A stretch of DNA of 64,000 nucleotides from a virus. Its lineage: Duplodnaviria; Heunggongvirae; Uroviricota; Caudoviricetes. Below are positions 36,948 through 54,014 of this stretch, in pieces. The position numbers were made by a program, and so were the translations under genes. Where the stretch lies: the IMG/VR virus record IMGVR_UViG_3300042009_000026, positions 224,001 to 288,000 of that record; one strand, 5' to 3'. Every line of letters starts with the position of its first letter. Position 1 is the first letter of the stretch. The notes below the pieces were generated by a model. That model did not search any database. It was not told the DNA's origin and saw only the letters and a list, made by a program, of their open reading frames with translations.

Positions 36948-37511
36948 ATGTCTTATCTGAATCCGAATAAACTTAAAGCTTTCATGGCCAGCCTGGAAGA
37001 TAGCGATGGTGTAGCGCGTCAAGTAGACGTTACCAATGCTAGTGCTTCAGCAACCAAAGATCATCCTGCCTCACCAGAAGCAGAAGCTAACTCTAATGGT
37101 GAAGCAGCTACTGCTGCCGATACCGTGAAGGTTGGTGATGGCGACGGCGTTACTCCAACTATTCAAGACGCCATCAATGCAGGTGTACAAGTTGGTGAAG
37201 ACATCACTAAGATGGAAGAAGCCAAAGCAGCTTGTGAACATCACATTGGTGAAGTAGCTAACTACATCGACCGTAATGAATCTGTTCCACCATCGTTGGC
37301 TGAAGTAATCAAAGTAAGCTTGGCTCGTCATGACCGCAAGTTCTTTGCTCAGACTGTTCCAGCACTGGAAGCTTTCTCAGCACACACTGGTCGTATGACT
37401 ACTTCCATTGATCTGTTGAAACGACTGAAGTCTGGCGTTGATACCATCAGCCGTGGTCTGGATGCAGCCCGCGAACAAAAAGCTCGACTGGAGGCAATTG
37501 CACATGGCTAA
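36948..37511 (+). CDS. Head-protein propeptide-like module (standalone)
   Basis: ASLE and PALE cleavage-type motifs. IKVSLARHDRKFF..VPALEAF is homologous to the propeptide region of 38442..40202. Confidence 0.7.
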   Translation: MSYLNPNKLKAFMASLEDSDGVARQVDVTNASASATKDHPASPEAEANSNGEAATAADTVKVGDGDGVTPTIQDAINAGVQVGEDITKMEEAKAACEHHIGEVANYIDRNESVPPSLAEVIKVSLARHDRKFFAQTVPALEAFSAHTGRMTTSIDLLKRLKSGVDTISRGLDAAREQKARLEAIAHG

Positions 37512-38040
37512 GGTAAAACTTTCTAAACTGTTGCCTTCATTGGAATCGGAAGACGGTACCGCGGAAGTAGTAGAAGCTAAAGAAGTTAGTGCTGAACTGG
37601 GCAAAGCCGAAGTTCAACAAGTAGCTGACGATGGTTCGGGTAAAGGCGACGTAGCTGAAGCTGCTCAAGAAGTAGAAGTTGATGGCAAGGATTATACCGC
37701 TATCGATGAAGCTTCTAAACGTCAAGGTGAGATCATTCACAAGCAACTCGAACGTCTACAGGAAACCGAAGTATCAGTTGAAGCGTATATCGGTGTATTG
37801 CATACAGCTGCCGCTGCCAGTGATACTATTGGTTCTGGTGCTGCAGCAGTTATCAAATACGATCTGACTTCGCGTTATCCAAAATTCTTTAGTAAGGTTG
37901 TTCCATCTGTAGAGTCTTTCGATGGTGAACATGGTCCTGCTCGTACTACTCGACTAGAACGGGTCCTGCTTGGTAAACTGGGCGAGATCAAAACCAGTAT
38001 TGCTAAGAAACAAGAACAGTTGACAAAGCTAAAAAAGTAG
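37504..38040 (+). CDS. Head-protein propeptide-like module (178 aa), extended by a predicted -1 frameshift
   Basis: GGAGG RBS before ATG 37504. PSLE, VSVE and PSVE motifs. IKYDL...PKFFSKVVPSVESF paralogy. Ends CTA AAA AAG TAG. Confidence 0.75.
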   Translation: MAKVKLSKLLPSLESEDGTAEVVEAKEVSAELGKAEVQQVADDGSGKGDVAEAAQEVEVDGKDYTAIDEASKRQGEIIHKQLERLQETEVSVEAYIGVLHTAAAASDTIGSGAAAVIKYDLTSRYPKFFSKVVPSVESFDGEHGPARTTRLERVLLGKLGEIKTSIAKKQEQLTKLKK

Positions 38041-38057
38041 CAGTCTCGAAAGAGACT
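38031..38057 (+). other. Predicted -1 programmed ribosomal frameshift signal
   Basis: In-register A_AAA_AAG (38031-38037), then the stop codon, then hairpin AGTCTC-GAAA-GAGACT (38042-38057). Confidence 0.75.
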
Positions 38058-38375
38058 TATCTAGAAGGTCCTGATAGTACGTTCACGCATCAAGGTAAAA
38101 CCTACAGCGTAGATCGGTTGTTAGAACTAACCCGTGATCTCCCAGTTGTTCAATTCGACATTACTGAACTCGGATGGATGATCGATGATGATTACGATTT
38201 AAAAAGAATGAAGGCTGCCGATACGTCGGTTCCTATTTGTGTCTATCAACTACCGAAGTCTGGGGCTTGGGTAACAATGGATGGTTATCATCGTGTTATC
38301 AAAGCACTCTACGTTGAGAAGCGTAAAACGATACCAGCCAAGATTGTTACAGAACAGCTACGTAAACAGCTTTAA
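38037..38375 (+). CDS. ParB/Srx-like domain, predicted to be translated as the -1 frameshift extension of 37504
   Basis: RMKAADTSVPICV...MDGYHRVIKA...IPAKIV ParB-N motif. The frame is open from 38007 with no start codon until an RBS-less TTG at 38118. Confidence 0.72.
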   Translation, partial: VAVSKETYLEGPDSTFTHQGKTYSVDRLLELTRDLPVVQFDITELGWMIDDDYDLKRMKAADTSVPICVYQLPKSGAWVTMDGYHRVIKALYVEKRKTIPAKIVTEQLRKQL

Positions 38376-38441
38376 CTAAATCATTCGGTTGGTGCCTCTG
38401 GTACCAACCTTATGTAACTTTAATCCGCGGAGTAACACCAC

Positions 38442-40202
38442 ATGGCTAAGCCAGTAACTAAGAAACCAGCAGTCAAGCCTGCTGTCAAAAAACGTTTTCA
38501 AGATGCAATGGGCTTCCTGGCCTCAATGGAATCTGTAGCTATTGCTGAAGACAAGAATGTATCCGTTGACGCCCCTGTTCAAAAGGACGTCAAAATCGAA
38601 ATCACTGATACCGTTAAACCTAACGATGAAGTTGGTGCTTCCGTAACGAACACCCAGACCAAAGAACTGAAAGATACTACTCAGTCTGGTCTTGCCCAAA
38701 CCCAAGACGTTGGTAAAGTCTCTGTTAAAGAAACTACCGATGCTGGTAATGCTGGCGAAGAAGATGCTGTAACTAACAAAACTCCTGATGCTGTCAAGGC
38801 AGGCGAGAAAGATCTGACCACTGGTGTTGTTTCCCAGGAAGATGCTATCGAAGCCAATGAAACAGAACACCTTGAACCAAAAGAAGCTGATGATGCTGTA
38901 ATGAACGTCGAGCATGCTGTTGAAGAACTCGAAGCTAATGGTATTACGGCTGGTTCCGATAACGCTTTGCAGAAAGCTGAATCGGTAGGGAACGACCTGG
39001 AGAATATCTCTAAAGTAGAAGCTGCTCTGGAACAATATCAAACTCTGTTGGTTGGTATGCGTAAGAAAGGTGTTAAGCCTACTCCCGAGCTGGCCCGCGC
39101 TATCAAGATCTCTCTGGAATCCCATGACCGCAATTTCTTCCGTCCTATCGTTAGCTCGCTAGAAGACTTCGCCCGCCCTGATACCCGTCTGGTTGCTAGC
39201 CGTGGTTTGGAAGCAGCTATCGGTGACAAACTGAAAGACCTGGGTGCTGCTGCCGGTAATGCTCTGCAACGTCTGATCGAAATGCTGATCGATGCTTGGA
39301 ACCACTTCACTCGTGACACTCCTAAGCTGATCGAAGAACTGGATAAGACCATCAAAGCTGTACAAGGTGCTGAACTTGCTGCTGGCGAAGACCTGCAAGT
39401 TAAGTCTGCTGGTCGTCTGATGATCAATGGTAACTTTGCTGGTGATTCTGTTGACGTTGTTAAGAACGTTGAGAAGACCGCACAACAACTGCTGGTTGAC
39501 TGGCCACAAGCTCTGATCCAACTCGTACAGACCATCGAAGCTTCCGGTAAGCAAGTAGCTGTGTCTAACGAAGACTCTGCTGGCTCTGCCCATGGCGTTG
39601 AAGAAGCTGCACAGAAAGCTCTCGAAGCTACTTTCTCTCAGTTTACCCAAGTTGATTCCGGTGAAGCCCCTAGTTCGATGGGTGCCTATGAAATCGTAAC
39701 TCGTTCGCCTGTCATGCCTGGTAACAAAGCCATGTTCATTGGTATTGGTTCCGGTACTAGTGCGGCTGAGAACGTTGCCGATAAGAACTTCATGAAGTTT
39801 GAATTCGCTTCTACTGGTGATGCTGAGTCTGGTGAAGCTGGTGTTAAGATCCCTTCGAAAGAACGTGCCGTTGCTGCTCTGAATGCTGTTAAAGGCATCG
39901 TTGCTAACCTGATCGGTAAAGATACTTCGATGGGTGCTCTGAAGAACCTACGTAAGACTATCACTTCTGGTAATCCTACCGCTAAGGGTGCTGTTCAAGC
40001 TGCTCTGATGCAACACCGGATGTTCATGGGTTATCTGACCACTCTGGTTAAATCCTACATCGCATTCTATGGTCAAGTGGCTGCTGAAAGTACTGGTAAA
40101 GGCGTTGCTGTTCGTGAGAACAACCAAGCTGCTCCAACTGACGGCAAAACTAAAGACCGTACCAAAGAAGCGGATGATGAATCCGTAGTCTCCGTACAGT
40201 AA
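38442..40202 (+). CDS. Internal head protein with a long acidic propeptide (phiKZ gp162/gp93-family-like)
   Basis: Many S/A/G-x-E motifs (ASME, VSQE, AALE, ISLE, SSLE, RGLE). High-expression codon bias. Lies upstream of PAAR and spike. Confidence 0.7.
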   Translation: MAKPVTKKPAVKPAVKKRFQDAMGFLASMESVAIAEDKNVSVDAPVQKDVKIEITDTVKPNDEVGASVTNTQTKELKDTTQSGLAQTQDVGKVSVKETTDAGNAGEEDAVTNKTPDAVKAGEKDLTTGVVSQEDAIEANETEHLEPKEADDAVMNVEHAVEELEANGITAGSDNALQKAESVGNDLENISKVEAALEQYQTLLVGMRKKGVKPTPELARAIKISLESHDRNFFRPIVSSLEDFARPDTRLVASRGLEAAIGDKLKDLGAAAGNALQRLIEMLIDAWNHFTRDTPKLIEELDKTIKAVQGAELAAGEDLQVKSAGRLMINGNFAGDSVDVVKNVEKTAQQLLVDWPQALIQLVQTIEASGKQVAVSNEDSAGSAHGVEEAAQKALEATFSQFTQVDSGEAPSSMGAYEIVTRSPVMPGNKAMFIGIGSGTSAAENVADKNFMKFEFASTGDAESGEAGVKIPSKERAVAALNAVKGIVANLIGKDTSMGALKNLRKTITSGNPTAKGAVQAALMQHRMFMGYLTTLVKSYIAFYGQVAAESTGKGVAVRENNQAAPTDGKTKDRTKEADDESVVSVQ

Positions 40203-40211
40203 GGTATTCCC

Positions 40212-41375
40212 ATGGCCGATATCACTCTAACACAGGTTGACGCTGACCTGGCCCGACTGAACCAGTACAACCTGGCTCTCGAAGGTTTCCAGCGTGTGAT
40301 GGAAGGTCGTGAGATCGTTACTGGTCCACTGGCGGTGGCAATGCGCATCGCCTTGGAGGACGCTGAAGTTGATCAGGATGATGACAAAGGCGTTACGGGT
40401 AAAGACATTGCGACTGGATTTAAGAAAGTAGCTATTACTGTTAAGAACATTATTCAGTGGCTATTGCGTACAATTGGTAAGCTGGTTGAGAAACTCGGCC
40501 TTGGGATGCAACGTCTGGGTGAGAAAGGCCGTAAGGTTAAACAAGCTCTAGCGGAAATGCCTGAAGCTGCCCGTGCCAGTCTGGGTAAAGGTGATGCTTC
40601 TGAGATTCCTCAGGACGTCTTACAACCAGAGATGCTTGCTATTGCTGGTGAATTTGTAGGCAATGACATTGAAGCAATTAACAACGTCATTAAGATGGGT
40701 ACTTACATCAATGGAGATTTCCCTAAGATGTTTGACCAGATCATGGGCACTACTGAGCAATTAGCTCGTAAGCACATGAATGATGATACCTCTGAAGAAT
40801 TCTTTAAAGCTTTGGCTGCAACACTTAGTACAGGTCTCAAACGCCCTACTGTTCCTTTCAGTGGTGATCATTTTGCTGCTGCTGTAGCTAATGAAGAAGA
40901 CACAATCAACACTGTTCCTTTGATGGGTGACCAAGGTTTCGTAATGCCTGATCCGAAAGGCTCCGGTACACTAAACGAAAACAACCCTATTGAACAGCTG
41001 CGTGGTTATTTTGTATGGCACTTCGGTGACTACAATACTAAGAGCACAGGTTCTGTTGATATCCCAGTAGTTGACTTCGCAACAATCTCTAAGATTACCG
41101 ATTTGATCGATAAGTCTATCAATGATAATATCGATAGTTCTAGTGAACTTAAGTCATTGATGGATAAACGTGTAAGTGCAACTAATGCATTACTCGATGA
41201 AATGGCAAAAGGAGATGGCCCTGGTGCACGTGGTGAGATCGCTATGTGTGTCGGTGTAATGCTTCAACGCTTCGCTGATTGCCTAACGAATATTCATGGT
41301 TGGTACGCACGTACATTGACACAAGAACTTGGTTATCTGAATACTTGCATCGATGTAGCCTCTAAAGGCAAATAA
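40212..41375 (+). CDS. Internal head protein (phiKZ gp163-like paralogue)
   Basis: LALE and IALE motifs. ML.IAGEFVGND resembles LMINGNFAGD in the upstream gene. Confidence 0.68.
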   Translation: MADITLTQVDADLARLNQYNLALEGFQRVMEGREIVTGPLAVAMRIALEDAEVDQDDDKGVTGKDIATGFKKVAITVKNIIQWLLRTIGKLVEKLGLGMQRLGEKGRKVKQALAEMPEAARASLGKGDASEIPQDVLQPEMLAIAGEFVGNDIEAINNVIKMGTYINGDFPKMFDQIMGTTEQLARKHMNDDTSEEFFKALAATLSTGLKRPTVPFSGDHFAAAVANEEDTINTVPLMGDQGFVMPDPKGSGTLNENNPIEQLRGYFVWHFGDYNTKSTGSVDIPVVDFATISKITDLIDKSINDNIDSSSELKSLMDKRVSATNALLDEMAKGDGPGARGEIAMCVGVMLQRFADCLTNIHGWYARTLTQELGYLNTCIDVASKGK

Positions 41376-41378
41376 CGA

Positions 41379-41410
41379 CATAGTGGCTTCCCTTGCGGGA
41401 AGCCTTTATG
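41379..41410. terminator. Bidirectional CATA-hairpin-TATG element
   Basis: CATAGT-GGCTTCCC-TTGC-GGGAAGCC-TTTATG between convergent genes. Confidence 0.75.
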
Positions 41411-41415
41411 CTGTC

Positions 41416-41679
41416 TCATGCTGAGCACGTATGCTTAGGGTCACCAGTGGCTTCATGGTTACATGTAGCACGCATTCCCGCTAGCACTACGGGAATGCCA
41501 TTGATTGTAAAGATCGCACTGCCTTGCGGCATTATAGCGCTTGCATGGGAACCACTACCATGTCCAGTTACACTTGCCCCCATCGTAGCGATAGGGACAC
41601 CATTGATTGTAGCGATGGATTGGGTGGGTTGGATAATCCCACCTGCTGTATCAATACCTGCTCTTGCAATACCACTCAT
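41416..41679 (-). CDS. PAAR-repeat spike tip protein
   Basis: GIARAG.D.AGG, INGVPIA..G..V..HG...H, INGIPV..AG..ATC.H metal-binding PAAR pattern. Confidence 0.92.
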   Translation of the reverse strand: MSGIARAGIDTAGGIIQPTQSIATINGVPIATMGASVTGHGSGSHASAIMPQGSAIFTINGIPVVLAGMRATCNHEATGDPKHTCSA

Positions 41680-41682
41680 ATG

Positions 41683-42549
41683 TCACCCTACGATTGCGAA
41701 ACCACCAGATGCTTTAATCAAAACCTTACCGCCACCGATAGTGACGTCAGGAGCCGCTATGTTGACTGTTTGTGACGTACTGGTAACATTAGTCGTCTGA
41801 GTACTTACCGTGTCAGGAGTGAGCTTATAGACGGTCCCACCTACGGTTAACGTAATAGATTCTGCAGCAAACAATTCAATTGTCTTTCTTTCGATCTTAA
41901 TGAAGGTACCATCGGCATTCTTCATTTGGATTCGGTTCTCACGGGAAACAATTTCGATCTCGTTATTGATATCATCCGTAATTGTGAATTCACCGGTATC
42001 TGTATTGAACTGTTGGGTATAAGCATACGGTTCACCGTTCGCTTTGGATGTACCAAAGGTAAAGTGTTTGTCATGTGCTGATACGGCCATGTAATAACAC
42101 GTATTGAAGTCAACGCCTGCACCACCAGGAGTAGGAGAAGCATTCCAGGTATAGACAACAGATTCTAATGCCCGTAGTTCGTTCTTTAAGGCCAGTGAGC
42201 GCCAATAGTATTTGTCTGAGTCTCCTAGTCGCCATACTTCTACGAGTTCGTTACGCATGATGTCAGGAGGTGTAGCACGGTTATCCTCAGAAGGTAACCA
42301 TTCACAGGGAACAGATCGTTCAGCTGTTGTTTTGACTTGGTGAGTTGCTCCGCTAGTGTCTTGCCATTCCCTTACGGTTTCTTTGGGATCAAATTTGATT
42401 TCCCCATCAGTAGCCATTGCCTTCTCGTTCATGAGAACGTTCAGTGTTTTAGACTTGCGGGGCTTGTTCTCTTTAGACGTACCGATAGAAACTAATCGGA
42501 ACATGGATGCGGCTTGGCCGCTTATTGGTTTCTGTGAAGCTTGTTCCAT
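41683..42549 (-). CDS. Baseplate central spike (gpV/gp138-like; phiKZ gp164-like)
   Basis: OB-fold-like N-part (CEWLP....RATPPD...E.V.V) and beta-strand-repeat C-terminus. Adjacent to PAAR. AAGGA RBS before ATG 42549. Confidence 0.78.
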   Translation of the reverse strand: MEQASQKPISGQAASMFRLVSIGTSKENKPRKSKTLNVLMNEKAMATDGEIKFDPKETVREWQDTSGATHQVKTTAERSVPCEWLPSEDNRATPPDIMRNELVEVWRLGDSDKYYWRSLALKNELRALESVVYTWNASPTPGGAGVDFNTCYYMAVSAHDKHFTFGTSKANGEPYAYTQQFNTDTGEFTITDDINNEIEIVSRENRIQMKNADGTFIKIERKTIELFAAESITLTVGGTVYKLTPDTVSTQTTNVTSTSQTVNIAAPDVTIGGGKVLIKASGGFAIVG

Positions 42550-42631
42550 TTTGATATCCTTGAAGATTATACTCAAGAGCCAGATCTAATGTAGACAACG
42601 GCGCTAAGAATAAGGAAGGGGGCTTTTTACT

Positions 42632-45124
42632 GTGTATCTAAGTTTAGTAAAGTTAGAGCGATACAAACGATTGATGTTATCGAACATCCAAAGTTTGGAA
42701 TGGACACCAACAAAGAACCTGATGGTAATTATTGGTAGCAATGGTTCGGGTAAGTCCTCATTGCTTGATGAGCTATCCCCACTACCTTCTCATCACTCTC
42801 AATTCGAGAAAGATGGCAGTAAGACAGTACACTGCATGCACCGTAATGCTCGGTATGTATTGCATTCACATTACGATCGTGGTACAGGTCATCATTCATT
42901 TATCCGTGATGACATTGAACTGAATGAAGGTGGTACCTATCAAATTCAACTTGATCTCTGTAAGCAAGAGTTCGGGTTACAGCAAGACATCCAAGATTTG
43001 ATGACTGGACGTACTAAGTTCTCTCAGCTCCCAGTTAACAAACGTCGTGATTGGTTGACTCGTGCATCTCCAGTAGACCTGGGTTATGCGTTTAACATAT
43101 TGTCCAAAGTTACAGATGCTGCCCGTGCACAGAAGAATGTTATCGATCACATGACTAAGCGTCTAGCGAATGAAAACATTGATATGCTGGATGACTCAGA
43201 GATTTCTCGACTGCGTCAAGAACGTCAGCGGTTGACTGATCGGGTTAACACATTGTTCCTGCATCGGAATCCTTCATCCAAACGTGGCTTTGCTCACAAC
43301 GGACATGCTAAAGAAGAACTGGATGCACTCATCTACGATGCCAAGTGGCTACTGCGCCAATACCCACGCCTGACTGATAACACTCGGGTTGTCAATAAAG
43401 GCGAGTATAACCAGATCGTTAACCAACGTCTGGCTAACGTACAAGCTGCGCAAGCAGTAATTGATCGGTTGTTAGAAGAACTTGAAACTATTCGTGCTAC
43501 AACACCAGCACAGATGGATAAGATCTCACCTGAGGATCTAGCTGAGTTGAAAGAGAGATTGCAACATCACTTAACAACTGCGAATGAACAAAGCAGTGTG
43601 ATGAAAGCTTATCAAGGCTCGATCCCTTTGTGTCGTACAGGATTATTTGGTGATCAACATGCTCGGTTAGAAGATGCATTTGATCGTGCTTACGGTATTG
43701 TGATGTCCATCCCTAACAACGAAGATGGGGAAATGTCCACAGCCATTGCGCAAAACAAAAAAGAACAACTGAAAGAGTTCAAACATAAACTGCGTAGCAT
43801 CGAAGAGTTTATCTCCGAGACAATGCGTCGCATTGCTACATTAAAAGGATGCGACCATGTACAGTGTCCAAATTGCCAACACACATTCGCTCCTGGTGTA
43901 GATCCGAAAGATATACCGCAACTGGAAGAAAGACTGCGAAAAGCCTCCGAGGCAGAAGCTCATTTCCAACGTGAGATAAAAGCCATTGATGAGTACTTGG
44001 AACGGTATGTTGATTATGCTGGCTATGTACAGCAATTCCAACAAATTACCAGGGATCATCGTGACTACGCGGCAGTATGGGAATGGATGGTCGGTGAAGG
44101 TAGACTGTTCCGTTCACCTAAGTCGATTGCCACAGATGTAATTAGCTGGCACACTGCACAACAGGCGATGATCGAAACAGAAATCCAGATCGAACACAGT
44201 AAGCAGATAGAAGCTCGTTTGAAAGTTATCGAAGAGATTGACTTTGATGCTGCAGGTTACATGATGCAACGAGCTATAGACCTGGAAACAGAAGTCAATG
44301 TTAAACTGTTGCAACAACAATCTACTCGGGATGCAATCGAAGCATATATGCATTCGGGTAATGATGTTGATGTATTCATTGGTAAAGTGAATGGTTGTTT
44401 GGAATCATTTGCTAAATGGCGCGAACTGGCTCTGCAACATGCCGAGTGGTTGTTGGACCAAGCGTTTACTTCTGAGATCGATGCTACTCACCAACAACTA
44501 GCCACTACTGGTAATCGTTTGCGTGAAGCAGAACGTCGGGATACAGAAATTCGTTTGCTGGAAGATACGGTAGCTGATGCAGCTGATGCTTATACAGACT
44601 TACAACTCCTGGCTAAAGCGCTTTCCCCTAAAGGTGGATTGATTGGTCAGTACATGTTGGGGTTTTTGCAGGGGGTAACTAAATTGGTTAATACAGTCAT
44701 CGAAGATGTCTGGACTTACCCAATGGAAGTATTGCCTTCGAAGATTGATAAAGAAGATCTGGATTATAAGTTCCCATTGAACGTATCAAATGGTGCTGTG
44801 GAACCTACCGATATCGATTTGGGTTCTGATTCACAGAAAGAGATCGTTAACTTTGCCTTCCGTATTGCATTGTTAAAGTTCATGGGCTTTGACGACTTCC
44901 CTTTGATGCTGGATGAATTCGGTCGTACCTTCGATGAACAACATCGGGCTAACTTGATTCCATTCATTTCACGCATGATTGAGATGGGGCAATACCAACA
45001 GATTTTTTATATCAGTCACTACCAGAACACACATGGTGCCTTCAACCAAGCTGAGATTGTTGTACTTGATCCAACTAACGTTACAGTGCCAGAGCAATTC
45101 AATAAAAACATGGTGATGACATGA
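42632..45124 (+). CDS. sbcC: SbcC/Rad50-like SMC ATPase (phiKZ gp165-like)
   Basis: Walker A GSNGSGKS, coiled coils with a CPNC zinc hook, variant signature GSDSQ, Walker B LMLDE and H-loop ISH. Confidence 0.9.
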   Translation: MYLSLVKLERYKRLMLSNIQSLEWTPTKNLMVIIGSNGSGKSSLLDELSPLPSHHSQFEKDGSKTVHCMHRNARYVLHSHYDRGTGHHSFIRDDIELNEGGTYQIQLDLCKQEFGLQQDIQDLMTGRTKFSQLPVNKRRDWLTRASPVDLGYAFNILSKVTDAARAQKNVIDHMTKRLANENIDMLDDSEISRLRQERQRLTDRVNTLFLHRNPSSKRGFAHNGHAKEELDALIYDAKWLLRQYPRLTDNTRVVNKGEYNQIVNQRLANVQAAQAVIDRLLEELETIRATTPAQMDKISPEDLAELKERLQHHLTTANEQSSVMKAYQGSIPLCRTGLFGDQHARLEDAFDRAYGIVMSIPNNEDGEMSTAIAQNKKEQLKEFKHKLRSIEEFISETMRRIATLKGCDHVQCPNCQHTFAPGVDPKDIPQLEERLRKASEAEAHFQREIKAIDEYLERYVDYAGYVQQFQQITRDHRDYAAVWEWMVGEGRLFRSPKSIATDVISWHTAQQAMIETEIQIEHSKQIEARLKVIEEIDFDAAGYMMQRAIDLETEVNVKLLQQQSTRDAIEAYMHSGNDVDVFIGKVNGCLESFAKWRELALQHAEWLLDQAFTSEIDATHQQLATTGNRLREAERRDTEIRLLEDTVADAADAYTDLQLLAKALSPKGGLIGQYMLGFLQGVTKLVNTVIEDVWTYPMEVLPSKIDKEDLDYKFPLNVSNGAVEPTDIDLGSDSQKEIVNFAFRIALLKFMGFDDFPLMLDEFGRTFDEQHRANLIPFISRMIEMGQYQQIFYISHYQNTHGAFNQAEIVVLDPTNVTVPEQFNKNMVMT

Positions 45125-46646: not shown

Positions 46647-46669
46647 AGCCTATTAAAAGGAATCCAATC

Positions 46670-46837: not shown

Positions 46838-46870
46838 ACTGAACCTCAAAAATCAAAACGGAGTAACACA

Positions 46871-47044
46871 ATGAAATTTTCTACCCTCGCTGCTGTAGCT
46901 GGTATCGGTGCTGTTGGTTTCCTGGCGTACCGCTTCCTGACTGGCAACGAAGTTCTTGAAGTTCCAACTCCAGAAGAAGCTCTTCCGGAAACTCCAGTGC
47001 TGCTTCTGCCAGCACCGACCGTGGTTGAAACTCAAGCAGAGTGA
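46871..47044 (+). CDS. Early 57-aa protein with N-terminal TM and an acidic Pro-rich tail
   Basis: GGAG RBS. MKFSTLAAVAGIGAVGFLAYRFLTGNEVLEVPTPEEALPETPVLLLPAPTVVETQAE. Confidence 0.72.
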   Translation: MKFSTLAAVAGIGAVGFLAYRFLTGNEVLEVPTPEEALPETPVLLLPAPTVVETQAE

Positions 47045-47051
47045 CATACCA

Positions 47052-47073
47052 CCCCCTCCTTCACGGGAGGGGG
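47052..47073. terminator. Hairpin terminator between convergent genes
   Basis: CCCCCTCC-TTCACG-GGAGGGGG, preceded by CATA. Confidence 0.7.
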
Positions 47074-47090
47074 CAGGTTCAATTTTCTTT

Positions 47091-47546
47091 TTATTCGTCT
47101 TGCTCTTGAGCTTCTCGGATTAGCTTCATGCGATCCTGGAATTGATCAGATGTTTCATTAACCAAACCAATGTGTTCTTCACCCTCAGCATGTTCGAAAT
47201 TACCCAGATCTTCAAGCTTGAGTTCTGGCACACGGCCTTCTGGTACATTGTGAATTTCGCCGGGTTGAATAGCAAACGGGTTCTGGTTCTTAGCTTGACG
47301 GATAATCTCAGCCATAGCGCCCAACAGATCGTTGTTAGACTTGTTGCCTTCTTGCTCGATCTGGTTACGCTTAGCAGCAATAGCAGTTTGAGTATGGTCT
47401 TTTGTAGCTTTAAGGATAATGTCAATATCATCCTTGTCGCATACACCTAGGCCTTTGGACATCTTCTCGATTACGATGCTCTCACGGATCTCTTGACCCC
47501 AGGCTAATTGTTCGTCATATGTCATGGCTTGAGCGGCGTGACTCAT
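47091..47546 (-). CDS. Hypothetical protein
   Basis: 151 aa, AAGGA RBS. Confidence 0.72.
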   Translation of the reverse strand: MSHAAQAMTYDEQLAWGQEIRESIVIEKMSKGLGVCDKDDIDIILKATKDHTQTAIAAKRNQIEQEGNKSNNDLLGAMAEIIRQAKNQNPFAIQPGEIHNVPEGRVPELKLEDLGNFEHAEGEEHIGLVNETSDQFQDRMKLIREAQEQDE

Positions 47547-47629
47547 GGTGTGCTTCCTTATTCTTTGCGAGTAATCAAATACTCAACTGATTAACAATAT
47601 ACCGTAAACGGCATTCTGGAGTTCATAAG

Positions 47630-48181
47630 ATGTTCTCGAAGATCATCAATAAATACAGGGCCTGGCGATTAAATTCCAAGCTCGAACAATATGCGGAGAT
47701 CCTCGAAGACATCGACGGGGCAAACTGCAAACCTGAAGACTACCCCGTAAAACTCAAAGAATTCTGGCGGTTGTTTGATATGTCACTGTTGGATGACCTA
47801 GTCATTCGTGATGTGATGGGGCACACCGGGCAGCTAAGGCACCGTAACTTCGCACAACTCCACCAGTTGTTGTTGGATGTAAACGATGCTATTGCCAACC
47901 AGCAAGACTCCCGGATTGAATACGTAAGTCGAACAGGCGTAATGCATCAAGCAGAAGTTGAGCTCGATAATTACTTCTTCGATCCGATCCATGGTCACTT
48001 GAACATCAAAGAGTGCCTGGAGCAACTGCGTCAACTGTTACAAGCCCATTGTGGTATCCTAGAGAACATCGAAGATACGTATGGGCAGCGCAAGATGCTA
48101 CATGTGTACTATGACATCTATACGTTGTCAGATTTGATCATTGATATCCTTCACGATAAAGGAGAAGCCTTATTCCACTAG
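47630..48181 (+). CDS. Hypothetical protein
   Basis: 183 aa, GGAG RBS. Confidence 0.72.
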   Translation: MFSKIINKYRAWRLNSKLEQYAEILEDIDGANCKPEDYPVKLKEFWRLFDMSLLDDLVIRDVMGHTGQLRHRNFAQLHQLLLDVNDAIANQQDSRIEYVSRTGVMHQAEVELDNYFFDPIHGHLNIKECLEQLRQLLQAHCGILENIEDTYGQRKMLHVYYDIYTLSDLIIDILHDKGEALFH

Positions 48182-48223
48182 ACAGGTTTTAGCACTACCA
48201 AACCCTCTTAACATCCACCGTAG

Positions 48224-48982
48224 GTGAATAGCAACATGGAATCCGTAAAAGATCTACTGACTGATCCGCTTAAAGGTAAGAATCGTGCTCAAGGTGTATT
48301 GTGCTATCTCTTTCGAGAAGTACTGCTTTGGCGACGTGTGAATCAGATCGTTTGGAATAAGCGACTGAACGCATACTTTGAAAAACCACATAACCAAGAA
48401 AAGCCAGATAAAGGAAACTTGAATAAAGCTCTCCTGAATGATGACTTGCCTTGGGCTGGGTTTAAGAAGGCGATGGATTTCCTCTCACCACTTGAAGCTA
48501 AGCTGGTGATGGATTTTACTTGGCGTGATGGCAGTAGCACTTCGTACGAGATCGTGATCGATCCAGCTGGGGATGAGAAGCTCCAGTATAAAGACGTCTT
48601 CACGTATGAAGGTTGTGACGTATTCAACAAAGCCAAAAAACCGGTATCGACATTAGCGTATCTGTTCCGACATATCATCGCCCAAGAAGGAATAGATGAG
48701 ACGCAATGGGAACAGTTGTTTAATGACTATGCTGAAAATCCTGTTAATCAAGTTGGGGTTAAGAAATCCGAACTGAACGGCACCATCAGCATGATGAAGC
48801 GAGCACTCCTAGATGGGAAACTCTCGTGGAACGTGTTTAGACGTGGTGTACTGTTGCTGAAGCCACAAAAAGAAGTGTACACCTTGAAGTTGAAGTGGAC
48901 CACAGACCCACACTTGATCAATAGCATGCCCGATCAAGAATGGTCAGCCACTATCGAAGACCCGTACAGTGAGAAAGCGTAA
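48224..48982 (+). CDS. Hypothetical protein with an internal tandem domain duplication
   Basis: L.YLFR......W......Y.E.P.NQ...ALL...L.W..F......L.P......W occurs twice. The start may be ATG 48236. Confidence 0.75.
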   Translation: MNSNMESVKDLLTDPLKGKNRAQGVLCYLFREVLLWRRVNQIVWNKRLNAYFEKPHNQEKPDKGNLNKALLNDDLPWAGFKKAMDFLSPLEAKLVMDFTWRDGSSTSYEIVIDPAGDEKLQYKDVFTYEGCDVFNKAKKPVSTLAYLFRHIIAQEGIDETQWEQLFNDYAENPVNQVGVKKSELNGTISMMKRALLDGKLSWNVFRRGVLLLKPQKEVYTLKLKWTTDPHLINSMPDQEWSATIEDPYSEKA

Positions 48983-49365
48983 TGCAAAAAGTTCTGAACC
49001 TGAGCACCATCTCCCGTGATAACCCTTTCTCGGTAGATAACCAAACTCCAAAACAAACTGCGACTGGTTTGAACTTCCGCACATACCGCGGACTCCGTAT
49101 GTATCTCATCACGGGCTCTATGGAGCCTGGATGGCTTCGTGCTGTTTACCCTCATGACTTTGCTGCCCTACATCAGAAACAAGCCGCTTACGTGTTCGTA
49201 CGCGATCTGAAGGAAATCATGAGTGGTGCTTTGCAACGTGACATCGCCACTCGACCAATGGTTGGATTGATTGCTAATCGTAAAACGGAAGTAGTTACGG
49301 CTGGCAATACATCTTCTGATTATGAATGGCGCGATATTGTTAAAGAGGTTGTAGCAGGCTTGTAA
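48982..49365 (+). CDS. Hypothetical protein
   Basis: 127 aa, TAATG coupling with the upstream gene. Confidence 0.68.
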   Translation: MQKVLNLSTISRDNPFSVDNQTPKQTATGLNFRTYRGLRMYLITGSMEPGWLRAVYPHDFAALHQKQAAYVFVRDLKEIMSGALQRDIATRPMVGLIANRKTEVVTAGNTSSDYEWRDIVKEVVAGL

Positions 49366-49377
49366 CTCCAAACAAGT

Positions 49378-49404
49378 GGCTTCCCTTCGGGGAAGCTGCT
49401 TATG
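49378..49404 (+). terminator. UUCG hairpin followed by TTATG
   Basis: GGCTTCCC-TTCG-GGGAAGCT-GCTTATG. Confidence 0.7.
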
Positions 49405-49452
49405 CCAGATCTTATGATCCTCATATTTTTTTTTTACTTCAAGGTGAGCAAA

Positions 49453-50520
49453 ATGGCAGCAATTGCACTTCCGTCTTTTCTGGGTACACCAGAAGACGCA
49501 ACAAAAGTAGTAGACGCATACGGTGAAACTAGTTCAGAACTCCGTACACAACTCTCTTCTAAGATTACATCGTTCTCTTCTGGCCTAGGTGGCGTGTTCG
49601 ATAAGACGGTTGGTATTGCTAAAGGTATCGGTAATAAGCTCCGTACTAATGCCATCGACTTACCATCAGCCATGCGGCGCGTACAAGGGGCACTGAAGGG
49701 CTCTCGATCAGATATTACTAGGATTGCTAGCTCTACTGAAAAGATGATCATGAGTGAGCTCACAGGCTCTGATAAGAACACCAACTACATCAAGACTGTA
49801 ACCGATGTAGCGAAGGGTTTAGAACTCATGGTAGGTGATGGTCGTCAAGTTATCGACTCCTTTAAGAATGGGGGTTATAACCAAGTCAGTGCAATGGTTG
49901 GGTTTATCTCTGATCTAACCGATAGTCCTAACTTAAAGCTATTCGACTTAGGTGCAGAAGCGGCTATCTTGCGTGGTGTAGTAGAAGAAGTATCTGCATG
50001 GGGCGTTCCTAGTCTGGTCGATAAGATCATGAAGGATCAACCAGATGCTACCAAGTATGCGGTAATCAAACGTTCTGCTGATCGTATCTCTTACACCAGT
50101 TCACTAGACGTATTATTGTCTTATGCCAATGTAGAGTCCAGCAAGAATATCGGCACCGAGCAAGATCCAAGATATGCTAACATTGGAGCTGGTGCACTTA
50201 ATGCCAACACCCCTGACTTTGCTATTAAGGTATTGTCTAACTTTGCATTCGTTCAAGGAATTACCGTAGGGGATTATCCAACACAACTAGCTAAGCTTGT
50301 AGAACTAATGAACAAATTAAAACCTGATTGGTTCTGGACATTACGTGGACAACAGCAAGTGTGGAACTTAGGTACTCTGGCGACAGCGTCAGAAGATGCA
50401 GTGAAGCTTTTCCTATCGTCCCCAGTATATCGGGATGCTATCTTAACCGCTCCATTCTATTCGCCAATGCGCGTGGATGAATTAGTAGATACCATGTATC
50501 CTTTAACTACAACAGCATAA
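49453..50520 (+). CDS. Virion structural protein (phiKZ gp174-like by position)
   Basis: AAGGTG RBS before ATG 49453. The track's 49402 start runs through the terminator and poly-T region. Confidence 0.6.
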   Translation: MAAIALPSFLGTPEDATKVVDAYGETSSELRTQLSSKITSFSSGLGGVFDKTVGIAKGIGNKLRTNAIDLPSAMRRVQGALKGSRSDITRIASSTEKMIMSELTGSDKNTNYIKTVTDVAKGLELMVGDGRQVIDSFKNGGYNQVSAMVGFISDLTDSPNLKLFDLGAEAAILRGVVEEVSAWGVPSLVDKIMKDQPDATKYAVIKRSADRISYTSSLDVLLSYANVESSKNIGTEQDPRYANIGAGALNANTPDFAIKVLSNFAFVQGITVGDYPTQLAKLVELMNKLKPDWFWTLRGQQQVWNLGTLATASEDAVKLFLSSPVYRDAILTAPFYSPMRVDELVDTMYPLTTTA

Positions 50521-50523
50521 CGA

Positions 50524-50554
50524 CATAATGGCTACCCTTCGGGGTAGCCTTATG
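50524..50554. terminator. Bidirectional CATA-hairpin-TATG element
   Basis: CATAAT-GGCTACCC-TTCG-GGGTAGCC-TTATG between convergent genes. Confidence 0.78.
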
Positions 50555-50567
50555 CTGTATTTTTTTG

Positions 50568-51398
50568 TTACGACATGTAGCGAGGGCGCCGAGTAGCTGG
50601 ACGACGTTCCCAACCCAGATTAGTAATCAGGTCAGATACATCGAGATGGCTAGCAGATTCCAAACCTTGAGCTTTACGCTTCTCAGCTTCATCTTGCAAG
50701 GCCCACAGAGTAGTCGGGTTAATCGTCATTTCTGTTTCAGCGAATGATTCTAGTGCAGGAGAGTTGTGCTTACCCGCTACATAGATACCACCTTCACCAA
50801 CGAAGTCCCAGGTAGAGATTTCACGAGTGTACTTAATACCACGCATTACATCGTCTTGGGTAATCGAACGTACTGAGCAATAAGTGTTGATGTGTGGATT
50901 GGTAATAGATGCTTCGAACTCTTTAGCGAAAGGACCGTAAGGTTTAACTTCAGCAATAACGAGTTTGCAAGGACGACCATTCTCATCTCGGCCATCGACA
51001 ATAGTCAATGCACGGATGTGTGCGCAAACACGATCATCATCGATCTTACGGATACGACCCAGGTATTCCCGATCGTCCATATAGCGTTTGCATTTCTCAC
51101 CATCTTTCAGAACCCATTCCCAAGGCTCAGGGTGTTTGAATTCCATGTACAGCACTTGCTTGAGCAAGCGGCGCATTAATGGAGAACCAGGTGTAAACAT
51201 TGATACACCTGATGCGGCATCATAAAACATACCGGCAGAGTTTTGGGTGCCATAAGCGCCAACGCAGAGAGTGTAATACCCATCTGCGTCAGGAGTCAGG
51301 ATGCCTTTCTTACCACCGGCAGTCAGAAGACTACCGCTAATACGTACTTGGTTACCGGCTTGCTTCTGGACACCAAAGTAATCTTGAGCTGTGCTCAT
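50568..51398 (-). CDS. Prohead (head maturation) serine protease (phiKZ gp175-like)
   Basis: EFKHP (His), CSVRS (Ser) and TWDFV (Asp) as in T4 gp21-type proteases. C-terminal autocleavage-type motifs PALE and QGLE. Confidence 0.88.
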   Translation of the reverse strand: MSTAQDYFGVQKQAGNQVRISGSLLTAGGKKGILTPDADGYYTLCVGAYGTQNSAGMFYDAASGVSMFTPGSPLMRRLLKQVLYMEFKHPEPWEWVLKDGEKCKRYMDDREYLGRIRKIDDDRVCAHIRALTIVDGRDENGRPCKLVIAEVKPYGPFAKEFEASITNPHINTYCSVRSITQDDVMRGIKYTREISTWDFVGEGGIYVAGKHNSPALESFAETEMTINPTTLWALQDEAEKRKAQGLESASHLDVSDLITNLGWERRPATRRPRYMS

Positions 51399-51409
51399 AA
51401 TGGTGTTCC

Positions 51410-52123
51410 TTACGTACGAAGAATTTCTTCAATCAGTTCTACAGACTCACTCGGGTTAACTACCGCTGTGTTGATAGCGTCAGCAAAGTAAGCACCGTTC
51501 AATCGGCTAGTGGTATCGGAGGTGTTCCAAACTACAGAGCGGAAAGGAATAACTTTAGGTGGGTTGGTGACAACATCCGAATGGTTATTCAGAATGTGTC
51601 GGTACAGTCGTGTCAGGTCGTCTTTATCACGAGCAGTTGTCGAGATAATCAGTTCCAAGATCGCACGTGAACCCAAGTTAACACCAGCATGCAGCGAAGC
51701 AGTGTCAAACATCTTGGCCATGTCGTAATAGTTCATGTACCACGGAATGTTCCCTTTAGCGACTAGTTCATCGTAAAGGTAATAAGTCAGTGTATCGTTC
51801 ACTACGAGTTGGTTGTTCACAAATACCACATCACCAGGTTCAAAAGAGAACTCAAAGTAATCAGTACCACGAACTGTAACTTTCTTAGTCGAGCTTGGAC
51901 GGATCTGCATCATTGCAATTGTGTTATCAACACCGTAATATTGGTCATTCACAATGAGAGCATAGAACCCAACGATAAAAACTTCAGAACCTAGGATCGC
52001 TAGGTCCTTATTCTGAAATCGTACAGGCACATGAATCTTAACAGGAGCATCTGTAACAGTGCTCCCATTCTCTTGTAGATGTAGGTGTTGGAACACACGC
52101 TTTGCATCGCGTGTTAACTCCAT
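51410..52123 (-). CDS. Virion RNAP-associated subunit (phiKZ gp176-like)
   Basis: 237 aa, lying between the protease and the gp177/178 homologues. The C-terminal SRL.GAYF......V.E...IE.IL resembles the RpoC tail. Confidence 0.62.
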   Translation of the reverse strand: MELTRDAKRVFQHLHLQENGSTVTDAPVKIHVPVRFQNKDLAILGSEVFIVGFYALIVNDQYYGVDNTIAMMQIRPSSTKKVTVRGTDYFEFSFEPGDVVFVNNQLVVNDTLTYYLYDELVAKGNIPWYMNYYDMAKMFDTASLHAGVNLGSRAILELIISTTARDKDDLTRLYRHILNNHSDVVTNPPKVIPFRSVVWNTSDTTSRLNGAYFADAINTAVVNPSESVELIEEILRT

Positions 52124-52395
52124 TACTTGGTCCCCTTGATCTCTTTCTCAACCTTAGCTAAGTCAGCCTTAAATTGTTTCAGTGCTTCCGCAAGATCTTC
52201 CTCATCGGAGAGATACCAGGATTCACAGATACGATCATAAGCTTTCTCTTTCTTAGCATCACCATTGGTAGACGCATTCAGTACTTCCATGCGTGCAATC
52301 AATGGCTCCATTTCTTTAGGATACTTAGAAGCGAGGTTACGTACACGGGTTGACTGGCAACCCGCTTTATGAATACGTTGATCAAGGGTTAACGC
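52123..52395 (-). CDS. 90-aa helical module, predicted -1 frameshift extension of the gp177-like protein
   Basis: The frame is open from 52416 (...GKALTLDQRIHKAGCQSTRVRNLASKYPKEMEPLIAR...). The first ATG (52311) lacks an RBS. Confidence 0.65.
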   Translation of the reverse strand, partial: ALTLDQRIHKAGCQSTRVRNLASKYPKEMEPLIARMEVLNASTNGDAKKEKAYDRICESWYLSDEEDLAEALKQFKADLAKVEKEIKGTK

Positions 52396-52401
52396 TTTCC
52401 C
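52346..52401 (-). other. Predicted -1 programmed ribosomal frameshift signal
   Basis: In-register G_GGA_AAG (52401-52395) one codon before TAA. Downstream AACCC/GGGTT pairing and the hairpin CGGGTTG-CCAGT-CAACCCG (52364-52346). Confidence 0.7.
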
Positions 52402-54014
52402 GAGTGTGCCTCGAGACTAGCATCAGTATCTTCGTCTTCAGCATCCAGTTCATCGGCTTCATCAGTCTCTTCGACCAAAGGACCTTCACCGGTAGCTGCA
52501 TCAGCGATAGCGCCTTCTGCTTCACCACCTGTAGGCTCCTCTAGTGCTGCTGGAGCTTGTTCGATAACTTCAGGCTTGAACCGTTCGACTTGGATCTGAC
52601 TGGCTGCCCAGACAGCGTACAGAGAGAACAGTGCGTTAGTGGACAGTTCACGACGAGAAGCTTCAGGAGCTTCTTGGCCAGCCTTATCCATCAGTTGCAT
52701 ATATTCCCAGTAAGTAGATTCAGGGAAGTAGATACGGCAGATCAGTTGACCGAAAGCAACGAACTCATTGCACAGTTGTTCTGGACGAACAGCACGGATA
52801 GCATCAACGACTTTATCACGCAGACCATCTACTTGCATTTCAGCAAGAGTACCTTGACCAGCTTGATTAACGAATGCTTCGATCATGTCTTGACGACGGG
52901 AACGTTCAGCATTGTCAGTAGCAGCTTGTTGGATCAGTGGATAGATAGCTTGGAACTTCTGAATGAAGTAGACCTTACGCTCTTCTAGTCGAGCTATGGT
53001 TTGGCTACCACTGTTTTCCAGAGCAGAACCCAGGACAGCAGACAGGTCGCCATTAGCAGCACGCCATTGTGGTTCAACGTCACCATTCAGCCATACCACT
53101 AGACGACGGTTCTCGATTGCATTAGCTGCTTCAGCGCGGAGTACCAGCACGCCATTGCGCTGGTCTTCAGCACGACGCTGATAAGCACGCAACAGATAAG
53201 CACCAATCATCTCGTGAAGCATACGCATCACATGCATCCATTCTTCGTAGCCTACATTCATCTCGCCTACTGGTTCGCATGGGTTCTCACCCAGGTGACC
53301 ACACAGGAAGTATGCCAGCAACAGACCATCAATGTTGAAAGGAGCATTAGTCCCAACAACGAAAGAAAGTTCACCAACAGTAAGAGCTTTGTTACGATTG
53401 AACAAGTCAGCATAAGTACGGCTGATGACTTCTGGATCTACACCCAGCAACCATTCGGTAATTTGTTCACGTTCAGCATGTGGGTTATTGATCGAGACCA
53501 TTTCGATGATCTGTTCAACACCTTGAGCTGGGAGAATAAATGTACGGTATTGAGGTTGTGGATTTACGTTTGCATAGTTCTGCAAATGAGAAGTCAAACG
53601 TGGTTCCGAATGGATAGCATTGTAACGGAAGATGTCAGCACGAATATCAGCAGAAGTAGAAGCTTGCTGACGTTCATTGAAGTCACGTACCATCGAGTCA
53701 ATACCCGGAATAACAACGTTGGCTACATTGTACTGGATCTTACCCAGAGCAGCAGCAACCAGACTGACCATATCCTTGTTGTCTTCTTCGACAGTGATAG
53801 GTTGTTCTTCGTTCATTTCGGTAAAGTGATCTTCAACCGATGCAACGAGTTCATCGGATACTTCTGGACCGGCGGTAGGTTCATCTACAGCATAGCCGCT
53901 TGCGAACTGAGCAACAGGAAACTCAGGATTCGGAACGACCAGCACTTGACTCGATTCAGTCAGTTGTTGTGCAATCAGTTTTACAGACTGCACGGTGTTG
54001 GCGATATCAGACAT
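52389..54014 (-). CDS. Virion head protein (phiKZ gp177-like) with an acidic C-terminal tail
   Basis: AAAGGA RBS before ATG 54014 (MSDIANTV). Ends ...EDEDTDASLEAHSGKR. Confidence 0.72.
   Translation of the reverse strand: MSDIANTVQSVKLIAQQLTESSQVLVVPNPEFPVAQFASGYAVDEPTAGPEVSDELVASVEDHFTEMNEEQPITVEEDNKDMVSLVAAALGKIQYNVANVVIPGIDSMVRDFNERQQASTSADIRADIFRYNAIHSEPRLTSHLQNYANVNPQPQYRTFILPAQGVEQIIEMVSINNPHAEREQITEWLLGVDPEVISRTYADLFNRNKALTVGELSFVVGTNAPFNIDGLLLAYFLCGHLGENPCEPVGEMNVGYEEWMHVMRMLHEMIGAYLLRAYQRRAEDQRNGVLVLRAEAANAIENRRLVVWLNGDVEPQWRAANGDLSAVLGSALENSGSQTIARLEERKVYFIQKFQAIYPLIQQAATDNAERSRRQDMIEAFVNQAGQGTLAEMQVDGLRDKVVDAIRAVRPEQLCNEFVAFGQLICRIYFPESTYWEYMQLMDKAGQEAPEASRRELSTNALFSLYAVWAASQIQVERFKPEVIEQAPAALEEPTGGEAEGAIADAATGEGPLVEETDEADELDAEDEDTDASLEAHSGKR

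Follow-up and report, generated by a model that had tools for sequence, protein, structure and literature searches.

In retroviruses and totiviruses, Gag-Pol is made by −1 ribosomal frameshifting (reviewed in PMC5009743): ribosomes that slip at the 3' end of a structural gene add a second product to the assembly-competent structural protein, the carrier brings this passenger into the particle, a virus-encoded protease releases it, and the efficiency of slipping sets the stoichiometry. Here we analyze two candidate −1 frameshift sites, for which we propose the same sequence of events, in a 64,000-nucleotide stretch of tailed-phage DNA (the window), that is, bases 224001–288000 of the single 317,367-bp contig IMGVR_UViG_3300042009_000026 (GC content of 45.5%). 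Unlike in Gag-Pol, the virus is a double-stranded DNA phage, the carriers are head-internal ejection-type proteins and not a shell protein, the passengers are domains of about 100 amino acids (aa) and not replication enzymes, and the protease belongs to the Peptidase_S80 family, cutting after S/A/G-x-E. The resemblance is an analogy only, with no homology.

Comparable cases in phages are the lambda G/GT tail assembly chaperone and the T7 10A/10B and Listeria phage PSA cps/tsh genes, where ribosomes slip shortly before a late gene for morphogenesis ends and yield a minor, C-terminally extended form in a fixed ratio; lambda shares the heptamer G_GGA_AAG with our site 2. However, virions lack lambda G and GT, the extensions of T7 and PSA remain on the capsid protein whereas we propose release, and none of the three cases has a protease site at the junction or a separable domain that is delivered into the head interior. 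At site 1 the window carries A_AAA_AAG followed by a hairpin, like Escherichia coli dnaX and the IS3 family, and its relatives use NNA_AAG, where only the tRNA-Lys re-pairs well, like the CGA_AAG sites of Bacillus subtilis cdd and IS1222 reportedly described by Mejlhede et al. in 1999 (cited in PMC5009743). The 0-frame stop directly after the slip codon recalls the 'shifty stops' of Weiss et al. (1987; also cited in PMC5009743), where an adjacent stop is said to promote slippage of the tRNA on AAG. Unlike in dnaX, IS3 and cdd, no conserved upstream Shine-Dalgarno (SD)-like or downstream structured stimulator was found at site 1, and the spacing to the hairpin of the window is 4 nt.

The second half of the proposed scheme has its counterpart in the internal head proteins (IPs) and ejection proteins of phages phiKZ and SPN3US, whose N-terminal propeptides are cut by the prohead protease (PMC10449902, PMC10052503, PMC5694885); the capsid targeting sequence of T4 IPs belongs to the same comparison. 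The motif of the phiKZ protease is S/A/G-X-E, refined to LSxE (PMC10449902), and the SPN3US protease uses A-X-E (PMC10052503). Our carriers, an apparently truncated phiKZ_IP-type protein and a gp177 homolog, share with these precursors the layout of propeptide or carrier, S-x-E and mature domain, but whereas the known precursors are read in a single frame, the presumed mature domain of ours is encoded in a different one, beyond a candidate slip site. The first-pass annotation of the window, which suggested that a frameshifted passenger is packaged with its carrier and released by the protease, knew of no earlier description, and our full-text literature searches returned no frameshifting in jumbo-phage head or ejection protein genes.

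The closest public relatives of the window, the Pseudomonas syringae jumbo phages Psa21, D6 and RVTF4 (nucleotide identity of 69–80%), are phiKZ-type phages. The + strand of the window bears an array of IP genes; on the − strand, genes for the virion RNA polymerase (vRNAP) beta subunit and a gp177-like protein follow each other with a small open reading frame (ORF) in between, and then come a second small ORF and the genes for a virion protein and for the prohead protease (Peptidase_S80). We scanned the 720 ORFs of at least 80 aa in the whole genome for a terminal slippery motif or A_AAG combined with a −1 extension of at least 90 codons without a start for more than 25 codons, and sites 1 and 2 were the only real genes that fitted. 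Other candidates were ordinary overlapping starts or spurious ORFs, and a putative third instance at genome positions 187287–187679 was a spurious ORF overlapping an ordinary ATG-started gene.

Candidate slip site 1 and its ParB/sulfiredoxin-like passenger

37504–38040, + strand: carrier 1, IP-like protein of 178 aa, N-terminal (propeptide-side) module and 40-aa tail (phrog_8282, E = 3.2e-7)
38031–38037, + strand: slip site 1, A_AAA_AAG in register with the 0 frame, then TAG at 38038–38040
38037–38375, + strand: passenger 1, −1 frame ORF of 112 codons and a stop, predicted minimal ParB/sulfiredoxin-fold domain (phrog_17560, E = 2.9e-21, aligned from residue 5)
38046–38054, + strand: S-K-E, predicted Peptidase_S80 site in the −1 frame; S-x-E in the same column in 12/12 frameshift-type loci
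38042–38057, + strand: hairpin AGUCUC-GAAA-GAGACU, 6-bp stem, 4 nt after the heptamer, encoding part of VSKET (63-nt fold, z = −1.6)

Carrier 1 ends with CTA_AAA_AAG_TAG, the heptamer standing directly before the stop; the first-pass annotation had put it within one codon of the stop. For comparison we used 12 distinct loci: the window, the GenBank phages Psa21, D6 and RVTF4, the IMG/VR contigs L013–L016, and the assemblies L022, L024, L026 and L028. The passenger ORF is in the −1 frame in all 12. The carriers end with A_AAG (ten loci), G_AAG (one) or A_AAA (one), zero to one codon before the stop, which directly follows the slip motif in 11 of the 12 and is preceded by one extra AAG codon in L024. 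Perfect heptamers, with A, G or C as X, are present in seven loci; altogether, the motifs are A_AAA_AAG, A_GCA_AAG, G_GGA_AAG (three times: D6, L028 and L024), C_CCA_AAG, T_TCA_AAG, A_GAA_AAG, G_GCA_AAG, C_GAA_AAG, G_GGG_AAG and A_AAA_AAA. The C-termini of the carriers diverge (TKLKK, ATLAK, VEDSK, GSGSEK, MTMAK, LKGEK, RAEGK, MTAPK and others), and the penultimate codon, before AAG, ends in A in 10/12 loci over six different amino acids. Variable X bases and C-termini combined with retained slipperiness are what selection on a slip site would be expected to produce. In E. coli no tetramer is more prone to shift than A_AA.G, and A_AAA_AAG and G_GGA_AAG are established −1 motifs of measured shiftiness (PMC4066793); the first-pass annotation had named both as classic −1 sites.

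The protease motif follows the junction (VAVSKE|T). Its variants in the 12 loci are VSKE, ASQE, PSTE, PSLE, PSNE, TSNE, PSVE, TSLE and PSQE, and it is missing from the two standalone versions P0035 and P0040, which have their own SD sequence and ATG and read M-S/A-G-S-K-T/A-V-Y-T-E-G. The site-1 junction P-S-x-E-A-Y-S-E-G is similar to V-P-S-V-E-A/S-F/Y-D-G, with which the N-terminal module of the IPs themselves ends. Cutting after S-K-E would give a cargo starting with T-Y-L-E-G-P-D..., equivalent to the N-terminus of the standalone EL gp75, and TYLEGPDSTFTHQGK is the semi-tryptic −1 frame peptide that corresponds to this predicted cleaved cargo.

The −1 frame of the window is open from 38007 to its stop at 38373–38375 and reads KK-VAVSKE-TYLEGPDSTFTHQGKTYSVD... 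as far as 38375. It contains no ATG, GTG or TTG before TTG 38118, so that the first canonical start of passenger 1 is 27 codons in. We compared the linker, defined as the 17 codons from the junction to the Met that serves as the start in public annotation. Variable columns are found at 5/17 first, 5/17 second and 17/17 third codon positions, and the ratio of nonsynonymous to synonymous polymorphism (pN/pS) is 0.18 in the −1 frame versus 1.8 and 1.7 in the other two frames, and 0.21 downstream of the Met. The third-position pattern and the pN/pS values rule out conservation of the linker at the nucleotide rather than the protein level. Canonical and near-cognate start codons were sought in every linker, and none was conserved: the internal Met is absent from the window, L022, L024 and L026, and no ATG, GTG, TTG, CTG or ATH occurs anywhere in the L013 linker. 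In L013 and L024, moreover, the −1 frame has a stop 0–3 codons before the slip motif, and since the frame is closed just before the motif, no upstream start can serve in these loci.

Linker residues align with the standalone or in-frame homologs Machina gp10, EL gp75, PA5oct gp343, P0007 and L018. Machina gp10 begins at residue 3, EL gp75 begins with M-AYQEYGSTFVH, the PA5oct virion protein gp343 reads ...SYSEGKHSTVTH, and P0007 reads DSWFGHDGETY. In the AlphaFold2 (AF2) model of passenger 1 (pLDDT of 80.7) the first three strands are within the linker. Because the linker aligns with homologs and holds these three strands, it is part of the domain. The comparison points to translation of the linker, with a −1 shift as the only conserved way in.

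In 17 passenger 1 sequences D82, G83, H85, R86, K89 and A90 (DGxHRxxKA) are invariant. The top 45 Foldseek matches of the model are all sulfiredoxin (Srx), ParB, KorB, Noc, SbnI or SerK (best E = 3e-3, probability of about 1.0, TM of 0.4–0.5), and the UniRef name is 'ParB/Sulfiredoxin domain-containing'. The virion protein PA5oct gp343, to which the passenger 1 domain is fused in frame, has a weak ParB-like match (phrog_1033). Judged by its modelled fold and not by profile, passenger 1 is a divergent, minimal member of the ParB/sulfiredoxin superfamily. A homologous ParB/Srx-like domain forms, in frame, the C-terminus (residues 557–658) of ORF042 of Ralstonia phage RP12 (L035, 836–2830), residues 1–538 of which are an RNA polymerase beta-subunit fragment (phrog_2986). 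The automated gene call truncates passenger 1 to a 65-aa product starting with MIDDDYD (38181–38375).

Psa21 has the hairpin UGCCUC-CCAG-GAGGCA at the place of the window hairpin, with two pairs changed on both sides; the hairpin is absent from six other relatives. In the aligned sequences, the invariant context of site 1 is the 0-frame stop next to A_AAG and not the hairpin. Read on the − strand, the hairpin at 38042–38057 and the complementary bases of the A-run are together scored as resembling an intrinsic terminator, which is probably fortuitous, because the relatives lack the A-run. Right behind passenger 1, at 38387–38441 on the + strand, there is a 10-bp hairpin, GGTTGGTGCC-tct-GGTACCAACC, and TTATGTAACTTTAATCCGCGGAGTAAC fills the space from there to the ATG with which the next IP gene begins. 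Psa21, D6 and RVTF4 have nearly the same element, which probably combines a terminator with a promoter/RBS (ribosome-binding site) unit.

Carrier 1 is aligned with phrog_8282 by its N-terminal part only and has no Pfam match. Its orthologs, which align across the first ~150 residues, are IPs of 341–473 aa in nine relatives; PF12699 is present in the orthologs of L022, L024 and L028 (452–461 aa), and the L026 ortholog matches phrog_8282. Short carriers are confined to the window, Psa21 and L023-type contigs; of these, the first two retain just the N-terminal module of ~140 residues. By homology, carrier 1 appears to be a truncated member of the phiKZ-like internal head proteins, a packaged family.

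36948–37511, + strand: first 'propeptide-only' IP paralog, 187 aa (PF12699 phiKZ_IP, E = 2.3e-6; phrog_8282, E = 2.5e-11)

This paralog matches only the N-terminal part of the IP profile, and its stop overlaps the ATG of carrier 1. Two such tandem 'propeptide-only' IP genes (187 and 178 aa; 36948–38040, + strand) are present in the window and in Psa21. Since D6, RVTF4 and the IMG/VR relatives have IPs of ~450–473 aa at these positions, the mature C-terminal domains appear to have been deleted in the window and Psa21; the last codons, which bear the slip site, were retained despite this deletion.

Candidate slip site 2 and its helical passenger

52389–54014, − strand: carrier 2, phiKZ gp177 homolog of 541 aa from ATG 54014 (phrog_3841, E = 1.2e-98, aligned over residues 16–490)
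52410–52418, − strand: S-L-E, predicted Peptidase_S80 site five residues before the slip (DASLE|A)
52395–52401, − strand: slip site 2, G_GGA_AAG in register with the 0 frame, then CGT and TAA (52391–52389)
52123–52395, − strand: passenger 2, −1 frame ORF of 90 codons and a stop, predicted five-helix domain with conserved G-C-x-S-T-R and C-x-x-W-Y
52339–52378, − strand: extended hairpin of 6 bp, internal loop, 8 bp and 5-nt loop, which begins 16 nt downstream of the heptamer (−15.9 kcal/mol, z = −2.0)

Carrier 2 is 43% identical to PHIKZ177 (tblastn), and the synteny is kept: vRNAP beta, small ORF, gp177-like gene, virion protein and Peptidase_S80. In phiKZ, gp177 is reported to be a protease-cleaved, inner-body-associated and injected virion protein (PMC10449902). 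Both carriers are homologs of packaged proteins; the first-pass annotation had called them head proteins. Carrier 2 ends with ...DASLE-AHSGKR, its last codons being TCG_GGA_AAG_CGT_TAA, so that the heptamer stands one codon before the stop.

A −1 ORF is present at six of the site-2 loci compared (the window, Psa21, L020, L021, L032 and L030). The slip-site sequence TCGGGAAAG is identical in Psa21, L020, L021, L032 and the distant L030, and TCG_GGA_AAG_(CGT/CGC/TTC)_TAA is found in all six. The slip motif is kept in L030, whose domain is only 45% identical and whose two flanks have diverged. The protease motif and its surroundings, [SG]-x-E-[AG]-[HY]-S-G-K, are likewise retained in 6/6 loci, with G-L-E in L030 and L032. 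In D6 and RVTF4 both the −1 ORF and the slip-motif tail are absent, and the gp177-like gene directly adjoins the virion protein gene (L004, 3230–3242; L005, 3210–3221). Since these two phages are entirely without passenger 2, it is an accessory insertion or deletion in the phage group. A scan of JGI metagenomes for further site-2 loci found none. The junctions of L022–L032 and the variable columns at site 2 were counted by hand.

The −1 frame at site 2 is open from 52413 to the stop at 52125–52123, which overlaps the ATG of the next gene (TAATG), and reads GK-ALTLDQRIHKAGCQSTRV... as far as 52123; ALTLDQR is a peptide predicted from it. There is no start before ATG 52311. Among the site-2 loci the first ATG stands at differing codons (KEM-EPL versus KEV-EPM), and the sole upstream near-cognate codon, ATT, is ATC in L021 and L032. 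The conserved L-x-x-R-[LI]-x-x-A-G-C begins at residue 4 of the −1 ORF, that is, the domain begins three codons past the slip. The AF2 model, with a pLDDT of 95.7 for the full 90 residues, places helices 1 and 2 ahead of ATG 52311. The automated gene call truncates this passenger, too (52123–52311). The ESM Atlas lists only a form that starts at residue 29 and has a poor model, with a pLDDT of 0.59 versus 95.7 for the 90-aa form, the two values coming from different modelling methods.

In a search of 1.8 billion cluster representatives, the passenger 2 domain was found in 22, either standalone or in frame at the C-terminus. The standalone forms have 87–91 aa and begin 3–5 residues ahead of L-x-x-R-L-x-x-A-G-C. 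The metagenomic protein P0018 (695 aa), encoded in the same synteny by Peptidase_S80, is orthologous to carrier 2 (535 aa aligned at 35% identity, E = 2e-103) and, according to the gene call, has the domain in frame after VSLE|DAGKK. P0012, encoded within an IP gene array, consists of a propeptide-like region, DVSFE|S and the passenger 2 domain in a single frame; it is thus an in-frame IP of the phiKZ/SPN3US kind that bears the site-2 domain. The locus of P0011 ends at the contig end. In Viktualia (L011, 2690–3252) an extra ORF of 80 aa lies between the gp177-like gene and a 107-aa standalone passenger 2 homolog with the N-terminus ...CLSLE|AIEPSRSKE..., and the metagenomic P0021 (192 aa) is a homolog of this 80-aa ORF fused in frame with the passenger 2 domain. 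Passenger 2 has no Pfam match and a weak PHROG match to a family without assigned function; Foldseek against PDB and BFVD returned only the Psa21 ortholog.

The hairpin at site 2 sits in a nearly invariant block of 54 nt (z = −2.0 to −2.8), where 5/54 columns are variable versus 20/48 downstream, and 3/18 third positions versus 9/16. L030 has a different hairpin, with 8 bp and a 5-nt loop, 18 nt downstream of the heptamer. RNA structure as a stimulator at site 2 is suggestive only.

Downstream of passenger 2 lie two further genes.

51410–52123, − strand: virion structural protein of 237 aa, its gene flanked by those of passenger 2 and the protease (phrog_2926, E = 7.5e-93)
50568–51398, − strand: prohead (head maturation) protease (PF20034 Peptidase_S80, E = 1.7e-88; phrog_3014, E = 7.7e-80)

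The latter is the protease that the first-pass annotation had placed here, and the published S/A/G-X-E motif is the one it had assumed.

Candidate mechanism and competing explanations

We consider it likely, judging from the sequence comparisons, that both sites are programmed −1 frameshift sites which fuse cargo released by Peptidase_S80 to head-internal proteins. At site 1, the tRNA-Lys on AAG would slip back onto AAA while the 0-frame stop awaits decoding; at the seven loci with a perfect heptamer, that of the window included, the tRNA one codon before could re-pair as well. The ribosome would then continue into the ParB/Srx-fold domain and produce a fusion of 290 aa instead of the unshifted 178 aa. 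At site 2, a slip of the lambda G-T type on G_GGA_AAG would lead from the gp177-like gene into the 90-aa helical domain (630 versus 541 aa). The carrier part would take the fusion into the prohead, where Peptidase_S80 would cut at the conserved S-x-E by the junction and release a free cargo of ~106 aa (site 1) or ~95 aa (site 2). The freed cargo would be in the capsid and probably be ejected with the DNA, and the efficiency of slipping would set its copy number. What the sequences show is the motifs, coding constraint on stretches that lack a start, patterns of conservation, homologies and in-frame fusions. We infer the occurrence and rate of slipping, its restriction to a minority of carrier molecules as suggested in the first-pass annotation, packaging, cleavage, release and ejection, as well as the roles of the domains, including any effector function. 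The interpretation is supported, because every part of it that can be tested by sequence comparison came out favourably: the slip motif is kept amid diverging flanks, no start is conserved, and the linkers are coding in the −1 frame.

Several observations weigh against this interpretation. Five site-1 loci have only the tetramer A_AAG, and in L022 the tetramer is G_AAG. In E. coli, a tetramer that lacks a stimulator hardly exceeds background shifting (PMC4066793), so that the efficiency in the tetramer-only loci is uncertain. The downstream hairpins pointed out in the first-pass annotation are indeed present at both sites, but they are weak, and at site 1 neither conserved nor statistically significant: RNAalifold found no pairs near the slip, the single folds have z values of +0.5 to −1.6, and shuffled sequences fold almost as stably. 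At site 2 no pair is changed on both sides, i.e., there is no covariation, and the hairpin at 16 nt is farther away than the usual 5–9 nt between slip and structure. The heptamer of site 2 is invariant and provides no evidence of the compensatory type, and four of the six loci are close relatives. Pfam ParBc (PF02195) gave no match to passenger 1 at E ≤ 0.1, and the NCBI annotation of Psa21 does not mark gp219, gp241 and gp242 as virion proteins.

The frameshifts could also be real and the appended domains be C-terminal assembly, targeting or regulatory modules of two carrier classes, either retained or discarded as propeptides. The SPN3US protease removes its own C-terminal propeptide of 64 residues (PMC10052503), the passenger 2-type domain is C-terminal in four or more protein families unrelated to each other, which would fit a generic module, and searches with passenger 2 by structure and family gave no assignable enzymatic or effector function. 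However, both domains also exist as standalone proteins (P0008, P0010 and P0017; Machina gp10, EL gp75 and L018), P0012 has the classical IP layout of propeptide, S-x-E and domain, in which it is the C-terminal part that matures and is packaged, the conserved S-x-E coincides exactly with the domain boundary, and passenger 1 has an invariant motif of the ParB/Srx nucleotide-binding type. We therefore think that such modules are unlikely.

Without any frameshift, the passengers would have to be separate genes expressed by non-canonical initiation or by termination-reinitiation, with S-x-E and the slippery motifs being incidental. This is how public annotation treats these ORFs, and eight of the 12 site-1 loci do have a Met 19 codons into the linker; the ATGs of L026 and L028 are nearer the junction, that of L028 having AGGA 7 nt upstream, and standalone versions with their own SD sequence and ATG exist (L018, Viktualia). 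Yet conserved, selected coding starts at the junction, upstream of every such Met, which four site-1 loci lack altogether, and the L013 linker has neither a canonical nor a near-cognate start. At site 2 the start positions differ, with the only near-cognate ATT replaced in two loci, and in L024 and L013 the closed −1 frame makes an upstream start impossible. Separate genes would also leave unexplained the A-ending penultimate codon (10/12) and the stop abutting AAG (11/12). A scan for sigma-70 promoters and intrinsic terminators, in whose scope phiKZ-type promoters did not fall, showed no same-strand promoter or terminator between carrier and passenger. Taken together, we regard independent expression as quite improbable.

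There is very little to recommend the passenger ORFs as decaying remnants of in-frame domains after a 1-nt indel, or as assembly errors. The in-frame fused orthologs P0018 and RP12 ORF042 make an in-frame ancestor plausible, and the window has lost the internal Met, but the same frame relation recurs in 12 (site 1) and six (site 2) independent assemblies, pN/pS is 0.18–0.21 across passenger 1, both domains are predicted as intact, confident folds, and the slippery motif has been maintained through sequence turnover. No stops or indels indicating relaxed selection were seen in the 18 loci examined. A frame change by slippage of RNA polymerase rather than of the ribosome is hardly credible, since beside the six A's of the window (AAAAAAG) and the seven of L026 the other site-1 loci have only 2–4 A's and site 2 is GGGAAAG, and bacterial transcriptional slippage generally needs longer homopolymers.

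Proposed frameshifting and cargo loading in jumbo phages

If confirmed, the programmed frameshifts proposed here would be the first known case of frameshift-controlled loading of protease-released cargo into a phage head, and an independent invention of the Gag-Pol strategy. They also bear on annotation: current gene calls for jumbo phages truncate or mis-start such ORFs (Psa21 gp219 and gp241 and the window's own gene calls), and proteomic searches of virions that rely on standard gene calls would overlook the transframe products or assign them wrongly. The natural variants of the slip site, with A_AAG and an adjacent stop and with or without the full heptamer, may reveal the rules of bacterial −1 frameshifting in Pseudomonas, and the arrangement would offer a natural, tunable handle for putting foreign proteins into jumbo-phage capsids.

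More generally, the evidence leaves an even chance that −1 frameshifting serves phiKZ-type (chimalli-like) jumbo phages as a modular device for loading cargo. Small effector domains would then interchange between standalone genes, in-frame C-terminal fusions and frameshift-coupled fusions to an internal head protein; in the coupled form, the rate of slipping would determine the number of copies that enter the head, are freed by the prohead protease and are injected with the DNA, to act before the phage nucleus forms. Examples of such cargo would be the ParB/Srx nucleotide-binding-type domain and the new Cys-bearing helical domain. The two passengers would be new candidate injected proteins for the earliest and least understood stage of infection by nucleus-forming phages.

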